Source: Escherichia coli (GTDB lineage Bacteria; Pseudomonadota; Gammaproteobacteria; Enterobacterales; Enterobacteriaceae). Taken from it: a stretch of DNA of 64,000 nucleotides. The stretch lies in the NCBI RefSeq assembly GCF_044647545.1, contig NZ_CP172818.1; one strand, 5' to 3'. A program made the translations under genes and the position numbers. The notes beneath the pieces are model-generated. The model was not told where the DNA came from, ran no database searches, and saw nothing but the letters and a program-made list of their open reading frames with translations. Below are positions 698 to 61,512 of the stretch, in pieces; positions within the stretch are counted from its first letter, which is position 1, and each line of letters starts with the position of its first letter.

Positions 698-742
698 TTA
701 CAGATTTACTTTCTTTGCAATCGATATCACATGGAGTGGGCA

Positions 743-1567
743 ATGAACGAACATCATCAACCTTTTGAAGAGATACGGCATTATGGCACTGAAGGGCAAG
801 AATTTTGGTCAGCGAGAGAATTGGCACCGTTACTGGATTATCGGGACTGGCGCAATTTTCAAAAGGTACTGGCCCGCGCGACTCAAGCGTGCGAAGCCAG
901 CAATCAAGCTGCATCTGACCATTTCGTTGAAACCACCAAAATGGTTGTATTAGGTTCAGGGGCTCAACGAGAACTTGAAGATGTTCATCTCTCCCGCTAT
1001 GCCTGTTACCTGGTAGTACAAAACGGCGACCCTGCGAAACCGGTTATTGCAGTAGGGCAAACTTATTTTGCTATCCAGACCCGACGGCAGGAGCTGGCTG
1101 ACGATGAAGCTTTCAGGCAACTTCGTGAAGACGAAAAGCGTCTTTTTCTGAGAAATGAGTTGAAAGAACATAACAAACAATTAGTTGAGGCAGCGCAGCA
1201 AGCTGGGGTAGCGACAGCTATCGATTTCGCCATATTTCAGAATCATGGTTACCGGGGACTGTATGGTGGATTAGATCAGAAAGCCATCCATCAGCGGAAG
1301 GGGCTGAAAAAGAGTCAGAAGATCCTGGATCATATGGGTTCAACAGAACTGGCGGCTAATCTCTTTCGAGCTACCCAAACAGAAGAAAAACTCAAGCGGG
1401 ATGGCGTGAATTCAAAACAGCAAGCTAACACCACACACTTTGACGTGGGTCGCAAGGTGAGGCAAACCATTCAGGAACTTGGCGGAACCATGCCTGAGGA
1501 GTTGCCGACCCCGCAGGTCAGCATCAAGCAGTTGGAAAACAGTGTAAAAATTACAGAGAAAAAATAG
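743..1567 (+). CDS. dinD: DNA-damage-inducible protein D
   Basis: 274-codon frame from ATG at 743 (track ORF 731-1567 has a 4-codon upstream extension); length and sequence as recalled for K-12 DinD; LexA box upstream. Confidence 0.9.
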   Translation: MNEHHQPFEEIRHYGTEGQEFWSARELAPLLDYRDWRNFQKVLARATQACEASNQAASDHFVETTKMVVLGSGAQRELEDVHLSRYACYLVVQNGDPAKPVIAVGQTYFAIQTRRQELADDEAFRQLREDEKRLFLRNELKEHNKQLVEAAQQAGVATAIDFAIFQNHGYRGLYGGLDQKAIHQRKGLKKSQKILDHMGSTELAANLFRATQTEEKLKRDGVNSKQQANTTHFDVGRKVRQTIQELGGTMPEELPTPQVSIKQLENSVKITEKK

Positions 1568-1857: not shown

Positions 1858-4246
<2,389 letters not shown>

Positions 4247-4270
4247 GAATCGTCTTTATTGCAGTGAATC

Positions 4271-5035
<765 letters not shown>

Positions 5036-5089
5036 ACCTGATTTCAGTATCATGCCCAGTCATTTCTTCACCTGTGGAGCTTTTTAAGT

Positions 5090-5365
5090 ATGGCACGCGT
5101 AACTGTTCAGGACGCTGTAGAGAAAATTGGTAACCGTTTTGACCTGGTACTGGTCGCCGCGCGTCGCGCTCGTCAGATGCAGGTAGGCGGAAAGGATCCG
5201 CTGGTACCGGAAGAAAACGATAAAACCACTGTAATCGCGCTGCGCGAAATCGAAGAAGGTCTGATCAACAACCAGATCCTCGACGTTCGCGAACGCCAGG
5301 AACAGCAAGAGCAGGAAGCCGCTGAATTACAAGCCGTTACCGCTATTGCTGAAGGTCGTCGTTAA
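5090..5365 (+). CDS. rpoZ: RNA polymerase omega subunit
   Basis: 91-codon [32 protein letters not shown]; immediately upstream of spoT. Confidence 0.95.
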
Positions 5366-5383
5366 TCACAAAGCGGGTCGCCC

Positions 5384-7492
5384 TTGTATCTGTTTGAAAG
5401 CCTGAATCAGCTGATTCAAAACTACCTGCCGGAAGACCAAATCAAGCGTCTGCGGCAGGCGTATCTCGTTGCACGTGATGCTCACGAGGGGCAAACACGT
5501 TCAAGCGGTGAACCCTATATCACGCACCCGGTGGCGGTTGCCTGCATTCTGGCCGAGATGAAACTCGACTATGAAACGCTGATGGCGGCGCTGCTGCATG
5601 ATGTGATTGAAGATACACCCGCCACCTACCAGGACATGGAACAGCTTTTTGGTAAAAGCGTCGCCGAGCTGGTAGAGGGGGTGTCGAAACTTGATAAGCT
5701 CAAGTTCCGCGATAAGAAAGAGGCGCAGGCCGAAAACTTTCGCAAGATGATTATGGCGATGGTGCAGGATATCCGCGTCATTCTCATCAAACTTGCCGAC
5801 CGTACCCACAACATGCGCACGCTGGGCTCACTTCGCCCGGACAAACGTCGCCGCATCGCCCGTGAAACCCTCGAAATTTACAGCCCGCTGGCACACCGTT
5901 TAGGTATCCACCACATTAAAACCGAACTCGAAGAGCTGGGTTTTGAGGCGCTGTATCCCAACCGTTATCGCGTAATCAAAGAAGTGGTGAAAGCCGCGCG
6001 CGGCAACCGTAAAGAGATGATCCAGAAGATTCTTTCTGAAATCGAAGGGCGTTTGCAGGAAGCGGGAATACCGTGCCGCGTCAGTGGTCGCGAGAAGCAT
6101 CTTTATTCGATTTACTGCAAAATGGTGCTCAAAGAGCAGCGTTTTCACTCAATCATGGACATCTACGCCTTCCGCGTGATCGTCAATGATTCCGACACCT
6201 GTTATCGCGTGCTCGGGCAAATGCATAGCCTGTACAAGCCGCGTCCGGGTCGCGTAAAAGATTACATCGCCATTCCAAAAGCGAACGGCTATCAGTCTTT
6301 GCACACCTCGATGATTGGCCCGCACGGCGTGCCGGTTGAGGTCCAGATCCGTACCGAAGATATGGATCAGATGGCAGAGATGGGTGTTGCCGCGCACTGG
6401 GCTTATAAAGAGCACGGCGAAACCAGTACTACCGCACAAATCCGCGCCCAGCGCTGGATGCAAAGCCTGCTGGAGCTGCAACAGAGCGCCGGTAGTTCGT
6501 TTGAATTTATCGAGAGCGTTAAATCCGATCTCTTCCCCGATGAGATTTACGTTTTCACACCGGAAGGGCGCATTGTAGAGCTGCCTGCCGGTGCAACGCC
6601 CGTCGACTTCGCTTATGCGGTGCATACCGATATCGGCCATGCCTGCGTGGGCGCGCGTGTCGACCGTCAGCCTTACCCGCTGTCGCAGCCGCTGACCAGC
6701 GGTCAAACCGTTGAAATCATTACCGCACCGGGCGCTCGCCCGAATGCCGCGTGGCTGAACTTTGTCGTCAGCTCGAAAGCGCGCGCCAAAATTCGTCAGT
6801 TGCTGAAAAACCTCAAGCGTGATGATTCTGTTAGTCTGGGCCGTCGTCTGCTCAACCATGCGTTGGGTGGCAGCCGCAAGCTCAATGAAATCCCGCAGGA
6901 AAATATTCAGCGCGAGCTGGACCGCATGAAGCTGGCAACGCTTGACGATCTGCTGGCTGAAATCGGCCTTGGTAACGCTATGAGCGTGGTGGTCGCGAAA
7001 AATCTGCAACATGGGGACGCCTCCATTCCACCGGCAACCCAAAGTCACGGACATCTGCCCATTAAAGGTGCCGATGGCGTGCTGATCACCTTTGCGAAAT
7101 GCTGCCGCCCTATTCCTGGCGACCCGATTATCGCCCACGTCAGCCCCGGTAAAGGTCTGGTGATCCACCATGAATCCTGCCGTAACATCCGTGGCTACCA
7201 GAAAGAGCCAGAGAAGTTTATGGCTGTGGAATGGGATAAAGAGACGGCGCAGGAGTTCATCACCGAAATCAAGGTGGAGATGTTCAATCATCAGGGCGCG
7301 CTGGCAAACCTGACAGCGGCAATTAACACCACCACCTCGAATATTCAAAGTTTGAATACGGAAGAGAAAGATGGTCGCGTCTACAGCGCCTTTATTCGTC
7401 TGACCGCCCGTGACCGTGTGCATCTGGCGAATATCATGCGCAAAATCCGCGTGATGCCAGACGTGATTAAAGTCACCCGAAACCGAAATTAA
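5384..7492 (+). CDS. spoT: Bifunctional (p)ppGpp synthetase / hydrolase SpoT
   Basis: 702-codon frame with HD, synthetase, TGS and ACT regions; first codon is TTG (non-ATG start). Confidence 0.95.
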   Translation: MYLFESLNQLIQNYLPEDQIKRLRQAYLVARDAHEGQTRSSGEPYITHPVAVACILAEMKLDYETLMAALLHDVIEDTPATYQDMEQLFGKSVAELVEGVSKLDKLKFRDKKEAQAENFRKMIMAMVQDIRVILIKLADRTHNMRTLGSLRPDKRRRIARETLEIYSPLAHRLGIHHIKTELEELGFEALYPNRYRVIKEVVKAARGNRKEMIQKILSEIEGRLQEAGIPCRVSGREKHLYSIYCKMVLKEQRFHSIMDIYAFRVIVNDSDTCYRVLGQMHSLYKPRPGRVKDYIAIPKANGYQSLHTSMIGPHGVPVEVQIRTEDMDQMAEMGVAAHWAYKEHGETSTTAQIRAQRWMQSLLELQQSAGSSFEFIESVKSDLFPDEIYVFTPEGRIVELPAGATPVDFAYAVHTDIGHACVGARVDRQPYPLSQPLTSGQTVEIITAPGARPNAAWLNFVVSSKARAKIRQLLKNLKRDDSVSLGRRLLNHALGGSRKLNEIPQENIQRELDRMKLATLDDLLAEIGLGNAMSVVVAKNLQHGDASIPPATQSHGHLPIKGADGVLITFAKCCRPIPGDPIIAHVSPGKGLVIHHESCRNIRGYQKEPEKFMAVEWDKETAQEFITEIKVEMFNHQGALANLTAAINTTTSNIQSLNTEEKDGRVYSAFIRLTARDRVHLANIMRKIRVMPDVIKVTRNRN

Positions 7493-54794: not shown

Positions 54795-55859
54795 ATGGAA
54801 CATTTCGACGTGGCGATTATTGGCCTCGGCCCGGCAGGGTCGGCGTTGGCACGAAAGTTAGCAGGCAAAATGCAGGTGATCGCGCTGGATAAAAAGCACC
54901 AGTGTGGTACTGAAGGTTTCAGCAAACCCTGCGGCGGTCTGCTGGCACCGGACGCGCAGCGATCTTTTATTCGCGATGGACTGACGCTTCCTGTCGATGT
55001 GATCGCCAATCCACAGATTTTCAGCGTCAAAACTGTCGACGTCGCCGCATCGCTCACGCGTAACTACCAGCGAAGCTATATCAATATTAATCGCCATGCT
55101 TTCGACTTGTGGATGAAATCGCTGATCCCCGCCAGCGTTGAGGTTTACCACGACAGCCTGTGTCGAAAAATCTGGCGTGAGGATGATAAATGGCATGTCA
55201 TTTTTCGTGCAGACGGTTGGGAGCAGCATATTTCTGCCCGCTATCTGGTCGGTGCCGATGGTGCCAACTCGATGGTGCGGCGACATCTCTACCCGGATCA
55301 TCAAATTCGTAAATATGTCGCTATCCAGCAGTGGTTCGCAGAGAAACATCCGGTGCCGTTCTACTCCTGCATCTTTGATAATGCGATAACTGACTGTTAC
55401 TCATGGAGTATCAGCAAAGACGGTTATTTTATCTTTGGCGGTGCCTATCCCATGAAAGACGGTCAGACGCGTTTCACGACGCTGAAAGAGAAAATGAACG
55501 CCTTTCAGTTCCAGTTTGGCAAAGCGGTGAAAAGTGAGAAATGTACCGTGTTGTTTCCCTCACGCTGGCAGGATTTTGTCTGCGGTAAGGACAATGCCTT
55601 TCTGATTGGTGAAGCGGCGGGATTTATCAGCGCCAGCTCGCTGGAGGGGATTAGCTATGCGCTGGATAGCGCAGAGATTCTGCGTTCGGTGTTACTGAAG
55701 CAGCCGGAGAAGATCAACGCCGCCTACTGGCGCGCCACCCGCAAACTGCGTTTAAAGCTCTATGGCAAGATAGTCAAAAGCCGATGCCTGACCGCACCGG
55801 CTTTAAGAAAGTGGATTATGCGCAGTGGTGTGGCGCATATTCCACAGTTGAAAGATTAG
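54795..55859 (+). CDS. cbrA: FAD-dependent oxidoreductase (colicin M resistance protein CbrA)
   Basis: 354 codons from ATG 54795; N-terminal FAD-binding GxGxxG ([11 protein letters not shown]). Confidence 0.88.
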
Positions 55860-57148
55860 CCAACGCGCTTCACATCGCCCACCAGCAGGATGTAAGAGAG
55901 CGCGCCAATCAACGCAACGGCGGAGATATAAACCAGTGCAGGCGCGAAACCGTAACCCTGCGCCAGGTACCCCACCACCAGAGGAACGGTGATGCCGCCC
56001 AGACCACCGACAAAGTTAAACACGCCGCCGGTTAAACCAATCAGGCGCATCGGTGCCAGAGAAGAGACCAGCGACCAGGTAATCGAAGCAAAACCGTTGC
56101 CGAAGAATGCCAGCGCCATCAGGCACATAATCATCATCGGATCGTTAGTGTAGTTAGCGCCCATAATGCAGGTGGAGATCAGCAAGCCGCAGATAATCGG
56201 CGTTTTACGCGCAAAGCCCAGTGAAAAGCCCTTACGTACCAGCAGATCCGCGACCCAGCCAGAGAGCAGGACGCCGACAAACGCCGCGAGGAACGGTACC
56301 GTGGTCATAAAGCCTGCTTTCAGCGCCGTGATTCCTTTTTCCTGGGTTAAATAGTTCGGGAACCAGGTTAAAAAAAACCACAGTGTAGAAGCCACCGCAA
56401 ATTGCCCAAGATAGACACCGATCAGTTTACGATGGAACACCAGTTTCCAGTCTTTGGCTGTTAACGGCTGACGCGCCTCTTTTTTCACCGGCGCATCACC
56501 ATCCACCAGACCGCCGCCATCACGAATGTAATCCAGTTCAGCTTTGCTGATGCCTTTAGTCAGGCGCGGCGGCTGATAAACCTTAAACCAAATCAGCGAC
56601 CAGATAATGCCGATACCACCGGTGACAATGAACACCCAGTGCCAGCTCAACATTTCCTGAATCCAGATCAGCAGCGGAGTCAGAAACGCCAGACCGACAA
56701 ACTGACCAGACGTATAAAAACCAACGGCAGAAGCGCGTTCATGTTCCGGGAACCAGCTGGTCACCATCCGGTTATTGGTCGGGAAAGCGGGCGCTTCGAA
56801 AATACCGGTTATCGCGCGCAGACCAATTAATGACATTAATCCCGTGGCAAAGCCCTGGAATAACGTCGCCACTGACCAGCCAAATATCGCAATAAAATAA
56901 GTCACGCGTGAACCTACGCGATCTAAAAACCAACCGCCGGGGATCTGACATAGCGTATAAAGCCAGGCGAAGGCCGAAAATACATAGCCCATTTCCGCTT
57001 TCGTAATACCGAACTCTTCCTGAATATGGGCGGAAGCCACGGCCAGGTTAGCGCGGTCAACATAACAAATGACCACCGTAATAAAGATCATCACCAGCGT
57101 CAGATAACGCCGACGCCCCGGCTTTGCTGCATTAACGGGAATATCCAT
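55856..57148 (-). CDS. dgoT: D-galactonate:H+ symporter (MFS)
   Basis: 430 codons from the ATG at 57148 ([15 protein letters not shown]). Confidence 0.93.
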
Positions 57149-57267
57149 AGCGAGCTTTCTCCAGATTTTGGGCATAGCGAAGCCGCTCACCATGCCCTGT
57201 AATTTACAGAGGGTTATATTTTTGTATTGCTGTTTTAGTGCCCGATGAGGGGCTTACGTGGCAGGAA

Positions 57268-58416
57268 TTACCACTCTGCTACGCTGTTATCTTCATGACG
57301 CCAGAGCGGATTACGCCAGTCCGGGGCATTTTTACTGAACTCAATAACTTTAGCTTCGTCGATTTCCACGCCTAAGCCCGGTTTCGTTAGCGGTTTAAAG
57401 AAGCCGCCAACCATGCTGAAGTCTTCTTTGTTTTTCACAAAGTCGAGTAACTCCGCGCCTTTGTTGTAATGAATTCCCATACTTTGTTCCTGAAGTACGG
57501 CGTTATAGGAAACAAAGTCGATATGCAGACAAGCTGCCAGTGCAATCGGTCCGAGCGGACAGTGCGGCGCAAGGGTCACGTCATAGGCTTCTGCCATTCC
57601 GGCAATTTTGTAGCATTCGGTAATACCGCCTGCATGAGAGAGATCTGGTTGCAGAATCGAAATACCGCCCGCCTCCAGCACGCGTTTAAAATCGAAACGT
57701 GAGAACATGCGTTCACCCGCCGCCAGAGGAATATGCGTTTGTGCCGCCAGTTTCGGGTAGTATTCGGCCTGTTCCGCCAGCACCGGCTCTTCAATAAACA
57801 GCGGGCGATACGGTTCCAGTTCTTTAATCAGTACTTTCGCCATCGGCGCGCTGACGCGACCGTGGAAATCAAGACCAAACTCAATCTGATTGCCAAAAGC
57901 TTCACGAATTTGTGCCACGGTGTTGACTGCCGCATCTACCGCGCGGGAGTTATCAATTAGCCCCAGTTCTTCACAACCGTTCAGTTTGAAGGTATCGAAG
58001 CCGATTTCGCGCAGGGTTTTAATGCCGTCGATAACATTCGCCGGACGATCGCCGCCGACCCAACTGTAGGCTTTAATTTTGTCACGAACCAGGCCACCCA
58101 TCAGTTGCCAGACCGGCGCATTCAGCACTTTACCTTTGATATCCCATAACGCCTGGTCGATCCCGGCGATGGCGCTCATCAGGATCGGACCGCCACGATA
58201 AAATCCGGCGCGATACATCACTTGCCATAAGTCATTGATGCGCGATGGATCCTGACCAATCAAATAGTCACTCAGCTCGTGAACTGCCGCTTCCACCGTA
58301 CGAGCGCGGCCTTCGATCACGGGCTCGCCCCAACCGACCACGCCTTCATCGGTTTCAATTTTCAGGAACATCCAGCGGGGAGGTAAACGATACGTAGTAA
58401 TTTTGGTGATTTTCAT
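57268..58416 (-). CDS. dgoD: D-galactonate dehydratase (enolase superfamily)
   Basis: 382-codon [35 protein letters not shown]. Confidence 0.95.
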
Positions 58417-59030
58417 TGCACTGCCTCTCGATACGCCTTAACAAATGCTGCTGCCTGCTGCGCGGTGCGTTCTACGGATTGCCCGGCGCGATAGAGATCG
58501 CTGCCTAAGCCCGCCCCTGCACAACCTGCGTCTATCCACTGCGCCAGGTTTTCTGGCGTCACACCGCCAACGGCAAAGACTGCGATGTCCTGCGGTAATA
58601 CCGCTTTTAACGCTTTGATGTATTGCGGACCAAAAGCCGATGACGGGAATATTTTCAGCGCCTGCGCGCCCGCGTCGATCGCGGTAAAGGCTTCAGTCGC
58701 CGTCGCGCAGCCGGGGCAAACGGTCATGCCATAGCCCACCGCGCGGCGGATCACTTCACTATGGATATTGGGCGTAACGATGAGCTGGCAGCCCATCCTG
58801 GCGAGCGTATCGACCTGTTCAGGTTTCAGTACCGTACCTGCGCCAATCAACGCCTTATCGCCGTACGCATCAACGATGGCGGGAATGCTTTTCTCCCATT
58901 GAGGGGAATTCAGCGGGATTTCAACCGCGTCGAACCCGGCGTCAATCACCGCGCCAACATGCGCCAGCGCCTCGTCGGGCGTAATACCGCGCAAAATGGC
59001 GATCAGCGGGAGTTTAGTTTGCCACTGCAT
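58413..59030 (-). CDS. dgoA: 2-dehydro-3-deoxy-6-phosphogalactonate aldolase
   Basis: 205-codon KDPG-aldolase-family ORF; overlaps dgoD and dgoK. Confidence 0.93.
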
Positions 59031-59892
59031 GAGCGATGCTCCTTATACCAGCCTGAAATGCCTTGTCGCCCGCTACCACCGCCACGTCGCAACCCATCGC
59101 CTGAAAGGCTTGCTGGTAGCGCGCGGTCAGCGATGTTCCGGCGACAAGGGTGATGGCGTGTTGATGGGTCACATAGTCGCGCATACTGGCAACCTCTGCG
59201 CCAATCAACAAACCAGAGAGAAATTCGCTGACCTGTTCACGGGGAAGCGTTCCCAGCACATGCGATGCGCGAACTTCAAAAAGCTGCGGCAATATGGCGG
59301 GCGCATTAAGGCCACGCTCAAGGCCAGCCGCGAAGGCATCGGCAGAGTTTTCCTGCGGCGGCAAACCTGCGCCAATCAATGAGTGATTTAACAGTAAATG
59401 ATGTAATTCACCGGTCATTACGGTGCGAAAATCGTTGATTTGCTGGCTATCGGCCTGCACCCATTTGCAATGCGTACCGGGCATGACATAAAGAGAGGAA
59501 GGAGCCAAAGCACGCGCGCCGATCAATTGTGTTTCTTCGCCGCGCATCACATTGTGGTTATCGTCATGAGAAACGCATAATCCGGGAATAATCCAGATAT
59601 TGTCGCCAACAGACGTTAATTGTTCGCCAATAGATGAAAAACGGGCAGGAACAGATAAATACGGTGCAACTTTCCAGCCGACATTGCTGCCGACCATTCC
59701 TGCCATCACCACTGGCGTATTCTCTTCACGCCAGTCGGCCGTGACTTCTGCTAACACCGCAGCCGGAGATTTTCCGTTCAGGCGCGTGACGCCTGCTTCT
59801 GATTGCCTGCTCTCCAGGCAGTGGTCGCCCTGATAAAGCCAGGCGCGCAGATTGGTCGATCCCCAGTCAATTGCGATGTAGCGAGCTGTCAT
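59014..59892 (-). CDS. dgoK: 2-dehydro-3-deoxygalactonokinase
   Basis: 292-codon ORF MTARYIAIDWGSTNLRAWL. Confidence 0.93.
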   Translation of the reverse strand: MTARYIAIDWGSTNLRAWLYQGDHCLESRQSEAGVTRLNGKSPAAVLAEVTADWREENTPVVMAGMVGSNVGWKVAPYLSVPARFSSIGEQLTSVGDNIWIIPGLCVSHDDNHNVMRGEETQLIGARALAPSSLYVMPGTHCKWVQADSQQINDFRTVMTGELHHLLLNHSLIGAGLPPQENSADAFAAGLERGLNAPAILPQLFEVRASHVLGTLPREQVSEFLSGLLIGAEVASMRDYVTHQHAITLVAGTSLTARYQQAFQAMGCDVAVVAGDKAFQAGIRSIAHAVAN

Positions 59893-60578
59893 GTGATTTC
59901 CTTTAACCTTCGTGTCGAGCTGGCGATCATGGTAAGCGCCGCCTGCTCTGCCGCATCGCCGTCCTGATGCCGTATCGCATCAAACAGCGCCTTATGTTCC
60001 TGGAGCGTTTGCGGCATGTTGGCCTCATCACCCATCCAGGTTCGTTCAAATACCGCCCGCTGCAGCGAACTGATCGCAATGCTAAGTTGCTGTAACACCG
60101 GGTTATGCACCGACTGCAGCACCGCCTCGTGGTAGCGAATATCCGCTTCGTTAAACGCTTCGCGGTCCTGATTGTTGGCAATCATCTCGTTCAGCGCTGA
60201 TTCAATCTGCGCCAGATCGCTGGAAGTCGCGCGCTCTGCCGCCCAACGGGCAATCGCCGGTTCCACCAGATTTCGCACTTCGCTCATTGCACTGATAAGC
60301 CGTGGGTCGTAGTCGTTTTCCAGCACCCATTGCAGTACGTCAGTATCGAGGTAATTCCACTGATTACGCGGTGCCACAAACGCCCCGCGATAACGTTTCA
60401 TTTCAATCAGCCGCTTCGCCATCAGCGAACGGAACACCTCACGGATGATGTTGCGCGAGGTTGCAAACTCCTCACAGAGCTCCGCCTCAGCCGGAAGCGG
60501 CGAGCCTGGTACGTATTTGCCGTGAACGATCTGTTTACCCAGCGTAATGACGATGCGATCGGTTTTATTGAGAGTCAT
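59889..60578 (-). CDS. dgoR: GntR/FadR-family repressor of the galactonate operon
   Basis: 229-codon ORF with N-terminal GntR HTH and FCD domain; first gene of the dgo operon. Confidence 0.92.
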   Translation of the reverse strand: MTLNKTDRIVITLGKQIVHGKYVPGSPLPAEAELCEEFATSRNIIREVFRSLMAKRLIEMKRYRGAFVAPRNQWNYLDTDVLQWVLENDYDPRLISAMSEVRNLVEPAIARWAAERATSSDLAQIESALNEMIANNQDREAFNEADIRYHEAVLQSVHNPVLQQLSIAISSLQRAVFERTWMGDEANMPQTLQEHKALFDAIRHQDGDAAEQAALTMIASSTRRLKEIT

Positions 60579-60644
60579 GGAGAGTCCTTGTGCTCTGTAT
60601 GTTCTTCTCTACTTTACCCCGATCGATGCATAACGCGGCAACTT

Positions 60645-60717
60645 TGTAGTACCAGCGTGATGACGTTCGCGTTTTCCGTGTGCGTAATGTAGTACAAGCT
60701 TATATTACTGTACTACA
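60645..60717 (-). promoter_or_regulatory. dgo promoter region with repeated GTAGTACA-type operator half-sites
   Basis: TGTAGTAC at 60645, TGTAGTACA at 60688 and the inverted copy TGTACTACA at 60709, upstream of dgoR. Confidence 0.65.
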
Positions 60718-60855
60718 ATTTAGATCACAAAAAGAACAATGCATAAAAAAATGACATGCGTCGGGCAGAAATCTGAAAAGGGATAACAGGCGCTAAACAG
60801 GAGGGAAAGAAGAGTATGCTTTCAACGACTTAGCTACTCGTTTAAAGGATTAATC

Positions 60856-61512
60856 ATGAAGTTGAATTTTAAGGGATTTTTTAAGGCTGCCGGTTTGTGT
60901 TCTTTGGCATTTGCGTTGACCGGATGTATCACCTGGGGATTGGTTTCCAATACTGCAAGCCGTCCACATGCCGAGCAATGGCGGTCAGACACGATTAAGG
61001 GTTTATCGCTGGCAGAAGATAGTAACGGTACGAAAGGCTATGTTTTTGTTGGTGAATCATTGGACTATCTGTTGACCACCGGCGGCGATGAGGTAGTTAA
61101 AATGCTGAACGATCCGGCAATCCATGGTGAAAGAATCACCGTTTCTGATAACGCGAAATTTATTTTAAGCAGCAGTGATACTAATTTTTCTGGTTCAATA
61201 ACGCTCTATTACGACTGGGATAATGAGGAAGATAAAGCACTGGCGACACAATATGGTTTTATTTGTAATACCCAGCGTTGTACCTGGGCACTTGACGGCC
61301 TGAAAGGCTCTATCCACCAGAAAAATAAAAAAGCGGATTACTCAAACGTGATGGTTTTCCATCAACCCTTTACGGTGGGATTTTATAAGTACAAAGCAAC
61401 TGATGGCGTTCCGCGCGGCCTCGCTAATGCGCTGCTACCAGTCACTCTTACGCTGGATATAGTAACGTCACCACTCCAGTTCCTGATTTTATGCACGACC
61501 AGAAATTGTTAA
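60856..61512 (+). CDS. yidX: Lipoprotein YidX
   Basis: 218-codon ORF with lipobox LTGC. Confidence 0.85.

Follow-up and report, generated by a model that had tools for sequence, protein, structure and literature searches.

Three DgoR-type palindromes upstream of the Escherichia coli D-galactonate operon: two established operators and a predicted auxiliary site at conserved spacing

Results

The dgoR-yidX intergenic region and its genes

The window, by which we mean the whole 64,000-nucleotide stretch of Escherichia coli DNA that was analysed, contains the following genes around the region of interest:

55856-57193, minus strand: dgoT, MFS transporter
57268-58416, minus strand: dgoD, galactonate dehydratase
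58413-59030, minus strand: dgoA, KDPGal aldolase
59014-59892, minus strand: dgoK, 2-keto-3-deoxygalactonokinase
59889-60578, minus strand: dgoR, GntR/FadR-family repressor, gene 1 of dgoRKADT
60579-60855: dgoR-yidX intergenic region, 277 bp between the divergent genes
60856-61512, plus strand: yidX, divergent from dgoR

The minus-strand gene that borders the intergenic region was identified as dgoR, because its product combines an N-terminal GntR winged helix-turn-helix domain with a C-terminal FCD domain (Pfam, 2.9e-14 and 2.1e-27, respectively) and matches the E. coli DgoR structure PDB 7C7E over residues 1-229, that is, over the full length (E 3.7e-149). The protein is also 100% identical to WP_000174305.1 of E. 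coli SMS-3-5. The genes dgoK, dgoA, dgoD and dgoT follow downstream of dgoR and are the structural genes under the control of this region (55856-59892); yidX, yidA, yidB and gyrB are further neighbours of the locus. Expression of dgoRKADT, the D-galactonate operon of E. coli, is controlled from this intergenic region, which aligns without gaps to that of K-12 MG1655, has the same length and differs at 8 of its 277 bp. Among the complete E. coli genomes of our collection there was no exact copy of the whole intergenic region, the best match reaching 98.2%, and in about 8% of the E. coli genomes the match covers less than 80% of the intergenic query.

Three palindromes within 75 bp

The elements of the control region that are discussed below are listed in their order along the dgoR strand, with distances given from the dgoR ATG:

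60714-60729, minus strand: class II CRP site TGTGATCTAAATTGTA, with its right half doubling as the left half of IR1
60708-60718, minus strand: IR1, distal DgoR operator, TTGTAGTACAG, -140..-130
60687-60697, minus strand: IR2, second DgoR operator, TTGTACTACAT, -119..-109, one mismatch
60686-60691, minus strand: -10 hexamer TACATT of P1, the D-galactonate-inducible, CRP-activated promoter
60644-60654, minus strand: S3, third DgoR-type palindrome and predicted auxiliary operator, TGGTACTACAA, -76..-66
60611-60616, minus strand: TAAAGT within GGTAAAGTAG, probable -10 of the basal promoter P2

The exact 9-mer TGTAGTACA occurs at 60688-60696 on the plus strand and at 60709-60717 on the minus strand, and a copy with one mismatch, TGTAGTACC, is found at 60645-60653 on the plus strand. 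At the level of 11 positions all three sites follow the consensus TTGTA-s-TACAA (TTGTAnTACAA) with one mismatch each, and they occupy 60644-60718, a total span of 75 bp, which agrees with the three repeats that a preliminary description of this DNA had placed in the 5' region of dgoR. The copies were called half-sites in that description. This wording has to be corrected: apart from its central base, TGTAGTACA is identical to its reverse complement, and therefore each copy is a full operator, a whole 11-bp inverted repeat with the half-site TTGTA. The orientation of two direct copies and one inverted copy, which was described as well, can indeed be seen in the letters, but it comes down to a central G or C, and both exact sites match the opposite strand with a single mismatch.

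The three sites conform to T[TG]GTA-s-TAC[AC][AGT] and hence contain GT-N3-AC. Operators of the FadR subfamily are A/T-rich palindromes with TKGT/ACMA boxes (TKGT-N3-ACMA) and 3 nt between GT and AC (PMC4494728). In the window all three lie upstream of dgoR, at a distance of 66-140 bp; this first gene of the operon encodes the cognate regulator with its GntR and FCD domains. Given the local base composition, 0.017 sites are expected by chance in the intergenic region (Poisson P ~8e-7 for at least three), and none of 20,000 shuffles of the region gave three sites. Elsewhere in the 64-kb window two sites with at most one mismatch were found (at 1011 and 27941), compared with 1.7 expected.

We also scored the window with a position weight matrix (PWM) for which only the IR1 and IR2 sequences of species outside Escherichia had been used. 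IR1 ranked first with 17.4 bits and IR2 second with 15.2 bits. Such a motif scan had been put forward in the preliminary description as a check, and it recovers these two sites clearly; S3 came only fourth with 6.7 bits, a score equal to that of a coding-region match at 1009-1023. The DgoR-like palindrome TGGTAGTACAA at 1011-1021 carries one mismatch and lies inside an open reading frame with a Bro-N domain (prophage-type, 731-1567, plus strand). It was set aside as a DgoR target, since it is located within this reading frame and its occurrence is no more than chance would give in 64 kb.

IR1, IR2 and the inducible promoter P1

The two distal palindromes are well known from K-12. The inverted repeats IR1 and IR2 overlap the galactonate-inducible promoter (Singh et al., 2019, J Bacteriol, summarised in PMC11705089 and PMC12288454); DgoR, which is described as a dimer, binds a K-12 fragment with both repeats and is released by D-galactonate, and IR2 has one mismatch (PMC11705089, PMC12288454). 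The published IR1 oligonucleotide is CTAAATTGTAGTACAACAATAT (PMC11705089). In Sort-Seq experiments (Belliveau et al., 2018, PNAS; PMC6003448) a de-repression signal was mapped to -140..-110 from the dgoR ATG. This signal was lost in a dgoR deletion or with D-galactonate, and affinity chromatography combined with mass spectrometry on the same segment enriched DgoR. The same study located a class II CRP site (TGTGA) at -160..-140, a -10 hexamer, TACATT, that is not optimal and, at -30..-70, a further RNA polymerase site that is active in glucose (PMC6003448). The window has the same locus, the same protein and the operators at the same positions, -140..-110.

All three sites of the window had been predicted by comparative genomics. 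Suvorova, Korostelev and Gelfand (2015; PMC4494728, S1 file) give three DgoR sites for E. coli b4479, namely CTAAATTGTAGTACAACAATA, TAAGTTTGTACTACATTACAC and CACGCTGGTACTACAAAGTTG, the last of which is S3. The reading of the repeats as autoregulated DgoR operators is therefore supported, since the gene is dgoR, IR1 and IR2 match the published sites and all three are present in PMC4494728. It was likewise right to call this known biology: IR1 and IR2 are experimentally proven and S3 has been a published prediction since 2015.

In the window IR1 extends over the -35 region of P1 and also into the CRP site, with whose right half it has the five bases TTGTA in common, and IR2 overlaps the -10 hexamer TACATT. 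Judging by the position of this hexamer and the class II CRP geometry, transcription from P1 would start near 60679, at about -101 from the ATG. A consensus scan for sigma-70 promoters and terminators over 60500-60950 gave no matches, a result that carries no information, as the published promoters are weak or depend on CRP.

The IR1 sequence of the window (TTGTAGTACAG) differs from that of K-12, which is the perfect palindrome TTGTAGTACAA, by a G in place of A at position 11, an outer base at window position 60708. It is a rare natural operator variant at the strongest site, and the G at position 11 could slightly weaken repression. The 51-bp sequence with this allele is found at 100% identity in 76 complete-genome records, e.g., in E. 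coli SMS-3-5, where it belongs to a second, IS-flanked dgoRKADT copy. The next base, at 60707, is different too (window TTGTAGTACAG-T, K-12 TTGTAGTACAA-C).

The terminal T of IR2 is the operator mismatch and at the same time makes for a poorer -10 (TACATT instead of TACAAT), so that one base weakens both elements. We considered whether this T is forced by the -10 hexamer and rejected the idea, because a perfect IR2 (TACAA followed by T) would yield the better hexamer TACAAT.

The CRP site contains a GATC (60723-60726) at a distance of 4 bp from IR1, with the dgoR-strand adenine at -147. In Salmonella, a hemimethylated GATC of dgoR has been linked to ON/OFF heterogeneity (PMC7708049), and its position matches that of the -147 adenine in the window. 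A second GATC is present in the leader at 60621-60624. According to an alignment of ten sequences, the Escherichia sequences have this leader GATC; it is absent in Salmonella, Enterobacter cloacae and Klebsiella oxytoca and shifted in C. youngae.

Conservation of the control region

A one-genome-per-species scan yielded 80 dgoR loci from the Enterobacteriaceae, the Erwiniaceae and one member of the Pectobacteriaceae. The comparison set was made up of 79 distinct dgoR upstream regions, the window included, from about 78 species. Column conservation rises in discrete peaks above flanks of about 0.5-0.6. The peaks cover the CRP site together with IR1 (TTTTTGTGATCTAAATTGTAGTACAA, 0.9-0.99), IR2 (0.93), S3 (0.86-0.90) and the TAAAGT block GGTAAAGTAG (0.88), i.e., across the orthologous loci the sites have been kept and their flanks have diverged.

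The CRP-site element TTTTTGTGATC is 96% conserved, and in 67 of 74 loci TGTGA starts 16 bp ahead of the centre of IR1. IR1 is a perfect palindrome in 72 of the 79 loci. IR2 has at most one mismatch in 73 of 79 and exactly one in 72 of 79, the single mismatch being placed at position 10 or 11. For S3, a site with no more than two mismatches is present in 77 of 79 loci, 67 of which have exactly one.

The distances between the elements are conserved as well. The centres of IR1 and IR2 are 21 bp apart in every locus (79/79). In 69 of 77 loci IR2 and S3 are 43 bp apart, with 42 bp in six others and 44 bp in two, across a spacer of unconserved sequence. TAAAGT keeps a distance of exactly 33 bp from the centre of S3 in 72 of the 74 loci compared, whereas the ATG may be anywhere between 65 and 75 bp away from S3. 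Since S3 is variable in its distance to the ATG and fixed relative to TAAAGT, insertions and deletions are tolerated only downstream of TAAAGT.

Conservation along S3 is mirror-symmetric position by position (T94 T77 G100 T100 A98 / T93 x C100 A97 A98), which fits the signature of a dimeric regulator and not that of a sigma-70 element. At the same time S3 is never a perfect palindrome: the perfect form, TTGTACTACAA, occurs in none of the 77 loci. The right half is defective (TGCAA or TTCAA) and the left half intact in 56 loci, and the left half is defective (TAGTA or TGGTA, the type found in the window) and the right half intact in 16. Both halves are defective in five loci only, so that in 72 of 77 cases one half is consensus-exact when the other is degraded. 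On a crude neighbour-joining tree of dgoR the state of the defective half switches at least six times, a count that is only indicative because the tree is noisy, dgoR being highly conserved.

Among the 79 loci, that of Affinibrenneria lacks S3 and has no more than two sites, and the 2015 data set gives only two for Pectobacterium as well (PMC4494728). By its distribution in these sequences, S3 looks like a feature of the Enterobacteriaceae-Erwiniaceae lineage.

The GGTAAAGTAG block (60607-60616 in the window) is almost invariant in the approximately 78 species. The TAAAGT within it is probably the -10 of the basal promoter that Sort-Seq detected at -30..-70. The candidate -35 that goes with it is poor: E. 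coli has TTGCCG, separated from the -10 by a 19-bp spacer, and xTG is all that is conserved.

The part of the region that is proximal to yidX behaves differently. This third of the intergenic sequence, 60773-60855, is Escherichia-specific. Salmonella, Citrobacter, Klebsiella and Enterobacter have a GC-rich hairpin with a T-run, terminator-like in appearance, directly upstream of the CRP site. Control of the divergent yidX by DgoR is unlikely, given that the yidX side is specific to Escherichia and that other genera keep all three sites.

Discussion

Taken together, the data are best explained by a control region with three palindromic operators, of which IR1 and IR2 sit on P1 and S3 plays an auxiliary part, and we hold this overall explanation with high confidence. 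Each TTGTA-s-TACAA operator would be expected to take one DgoR dimer. DgoR bound to IR1 and IR2 covers the weak -35 and -10 (TACATT) of P1, as published experiments on K-12 have shown, and since IR1 overlaps the CRP site and the two repeats cover the -35 and -10 elements, the repressor should exclude both RNA polymerase and CRP. Binding of D-galactonate to the FCD domain frees DgoR, and CRP then activates P1, which is likewise established for K-12.

The operator centres are at 60713, 60692 and 60649, with spacings of 21, 43 and 64 bp. These distances correspond to approximately 2, 4 and 6 helical turns, and thus all three operators lie on one face of the helix; helical phase and conserved spacing, which are looked for in looping-type systems, are both found here. 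The centre of S3 would be located at about +31 from the start of P1 and about -45 from the start of P2, both starts being themselves estimates. S3 would therewith fall within the transcribed leader of P1 and directly upstream of the basal promoter P2. From there it may tighten repression, either by contacting the dimers on IR1 and IR2 cooperatively or through a DNA loop, or by acting as a roadblock, and it may additionally or alternatively damp P2, which would amount to negative autoregulation of the basal synthesis of DgoR. Looping would call for a contact between dimers across 43-64 bp, and DgoR is known only as a dimer, which speaks against a strong role for S3.

Because S3 is conserved in 77 of 79 loci, is never perfect, is locked in phase and stands between flanks of about 50% conservation, it is most likely a weak auxiliary operator of DgoR, as predicted from these comparisons. 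We are inclined, by a modest degree, to go further and to suppose that S3 is a functional third operator, deliberately kept sub-optimal and phase-locked (with IR2 43 bp and the -10 of P2 33 bp away), which sets the induction threshold or the basal DgoR level via looping or autoregulation of P2.

One could argue that IR1 and IR2 are the only DgoR operators and that S3 has been preserved as an element of P2 or as a site for another factor, its likeness to the palindrome being incidental. There are several facts on the side of this view. S3 is held at a fixed distance of 33 bp from the conserved TAAAGT, and its PWM score is low. The RNA polymerase region found by Sort-Seq, -30..-70, enters the right half of S3, and a repressor signal was not reported there (PMC6003448); in the available part of that report the de-repression signal in glucose is seen only at -140..-110 and P2 is visible with DgoR present. 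The "DgoR (right site)" was not recovered by Reg-Seq. Also, the experimental model of the Chaba laboratory up to 2025, in the portions of the papers accessible to us, comprises only IR1 and IR2, with an EMSA probe of 55 nt (PMC11705089, PMC12288454), and a literature search for a third DgoR repeat under the name "IR3" returned no papers. However, S3 is within one mismatch of the 10-position palindrome in 67 of 79 loci, with both halves symmetric, and a third match of such quality is expected at a rate of only ~0.017 per intergenic region. Additionally, the retention of an exact consensus half where the other half is degraded (72/77) agrees with selection for a DgoR dimer site and not for a -35-like hexamer, and comparative genomics arrived at S3 independently (PMC4494728). 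Thus we regard a pure promoter element or a foreign site as unlikely, and S3 as a weak DgoR operator remains our preferred reading.

It is more improbable still that S3 is an activating site, from which DgoR, sitting some 45 bp ahead of the P2 start, would stimulate P2 and sustain its own synthesis without galactonate. The estimated geometry, with the centre of S3 33 bp before TAAAGT, would allow for it. A dual role of this kind is also familiar in the family, as FadR is both a repressor and an activator and acts at fabA from about -40. Furthermore, P2 is active in glucose while DgoR is bound to DNA (PMC6003448). Against this, DgoR has been published as an auto-repressor and is undetectable in non-inducing medium (PMC11705089, PMC12288454), and a centre at -45, counted from a P2 start that is itself an estimate, is off the usual class II position. 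Finally, the proposal that the conserved blocks downstream of P1 act as RNA, i.e., as a structured leader or a riboregulator target in the 5' UTR of about 100 nt, was rejected as hardly credible: S3 and GGTAAAGTAG would indeed be transcribed from the estimated P1 start, but an Rfam scan was without a match at E <=1, RNAalifold on 12 diverse leaders predicted zero base pairs and zero covariation, and an 11-nt palindrome with a one-base centre cannot make a hairpin.

If S3 does serve as an auxiliary DgoR operator, its closest mechanistic analogue would be the O1/O2 pair of LldR in the E. coli lldPRD operon. LldR, which ranks with the best NCBIfam matches near DgoR, is likewise a GntR repressor of the FadR subfamily that deals with a sugar acid or hydroxy acid; one of its operators precedes the promoter and the other lies beyond the transcription start (PMC8689689). 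Repression by LldR has been proposed to proceed via looping between repressors that share the same angular orientation (PMC8689689). The two systems differ in that the LldR sites flank the promoter, whereas in dgo two sites are on the promoter and one is downstream of it, and in that looping is hypothetical for DgoR. NanR at the (GGTATA)3 repeats of E. coli nanATEK offers another comparison. It is the best NCBIfam neighbour of DgoR and a PDB neighbour as well, and this GntR/FadR-type sugar-acid repressor is likewise reported to place three dimers on one control region; its sites are three adjacent direct hexamer repeats, whereas those of DgoR are three separated palindromes.

What the present analysis adds to the published picture is modest. 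The 2015 regulon has the same three sites as the window, in the form of the family boxes TKGT-N3-ACMA and as a prediction only, and the available parts of that publication carry no remark on the fixed 43-bp phasing or on the imperfect palindrome of S3 (PMC4494728). The published K-12 model has two operators and omits S3. Our additions are the rigid 21/43/33-bp architecture over about 78 species, the pattern in which S3 always has one defective half, and the rare IR1 allele of the window. Should the auxiliary role of S3 hold, there would be an element outside the current two-operator experimental model. S3 is left out of the experimental model that underlies quantitative studies of DgoR allostery and of natural dgoR variants, and it could affect the measured repression and the induction thresholds.

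The dgo locus is found more than once in some genomes. Matches to the window occupy 4-11 places on plasmids, and the number of matching places exceeds the number of records by about 110-200, both figures depending on the length of the query. In some complete E. coli genomes dgoRKADT is present a second time, at a distance from the locus beside gyrB, and this additional copy has remnants of IS200/IS605, IS66 and IS3 in its flanks. An example is E. coli SMS-3-5 (NC_010498.1, about 1109185-1114182; 2151-7148 in the extracted locus L085), where the second copy is 97.8% identical to positions 55840-60772 of the window over 5 kb. This copy holds the whole control region, with the CRP half-site and the three operators, and it carries the same rare IR1 allele as the window.
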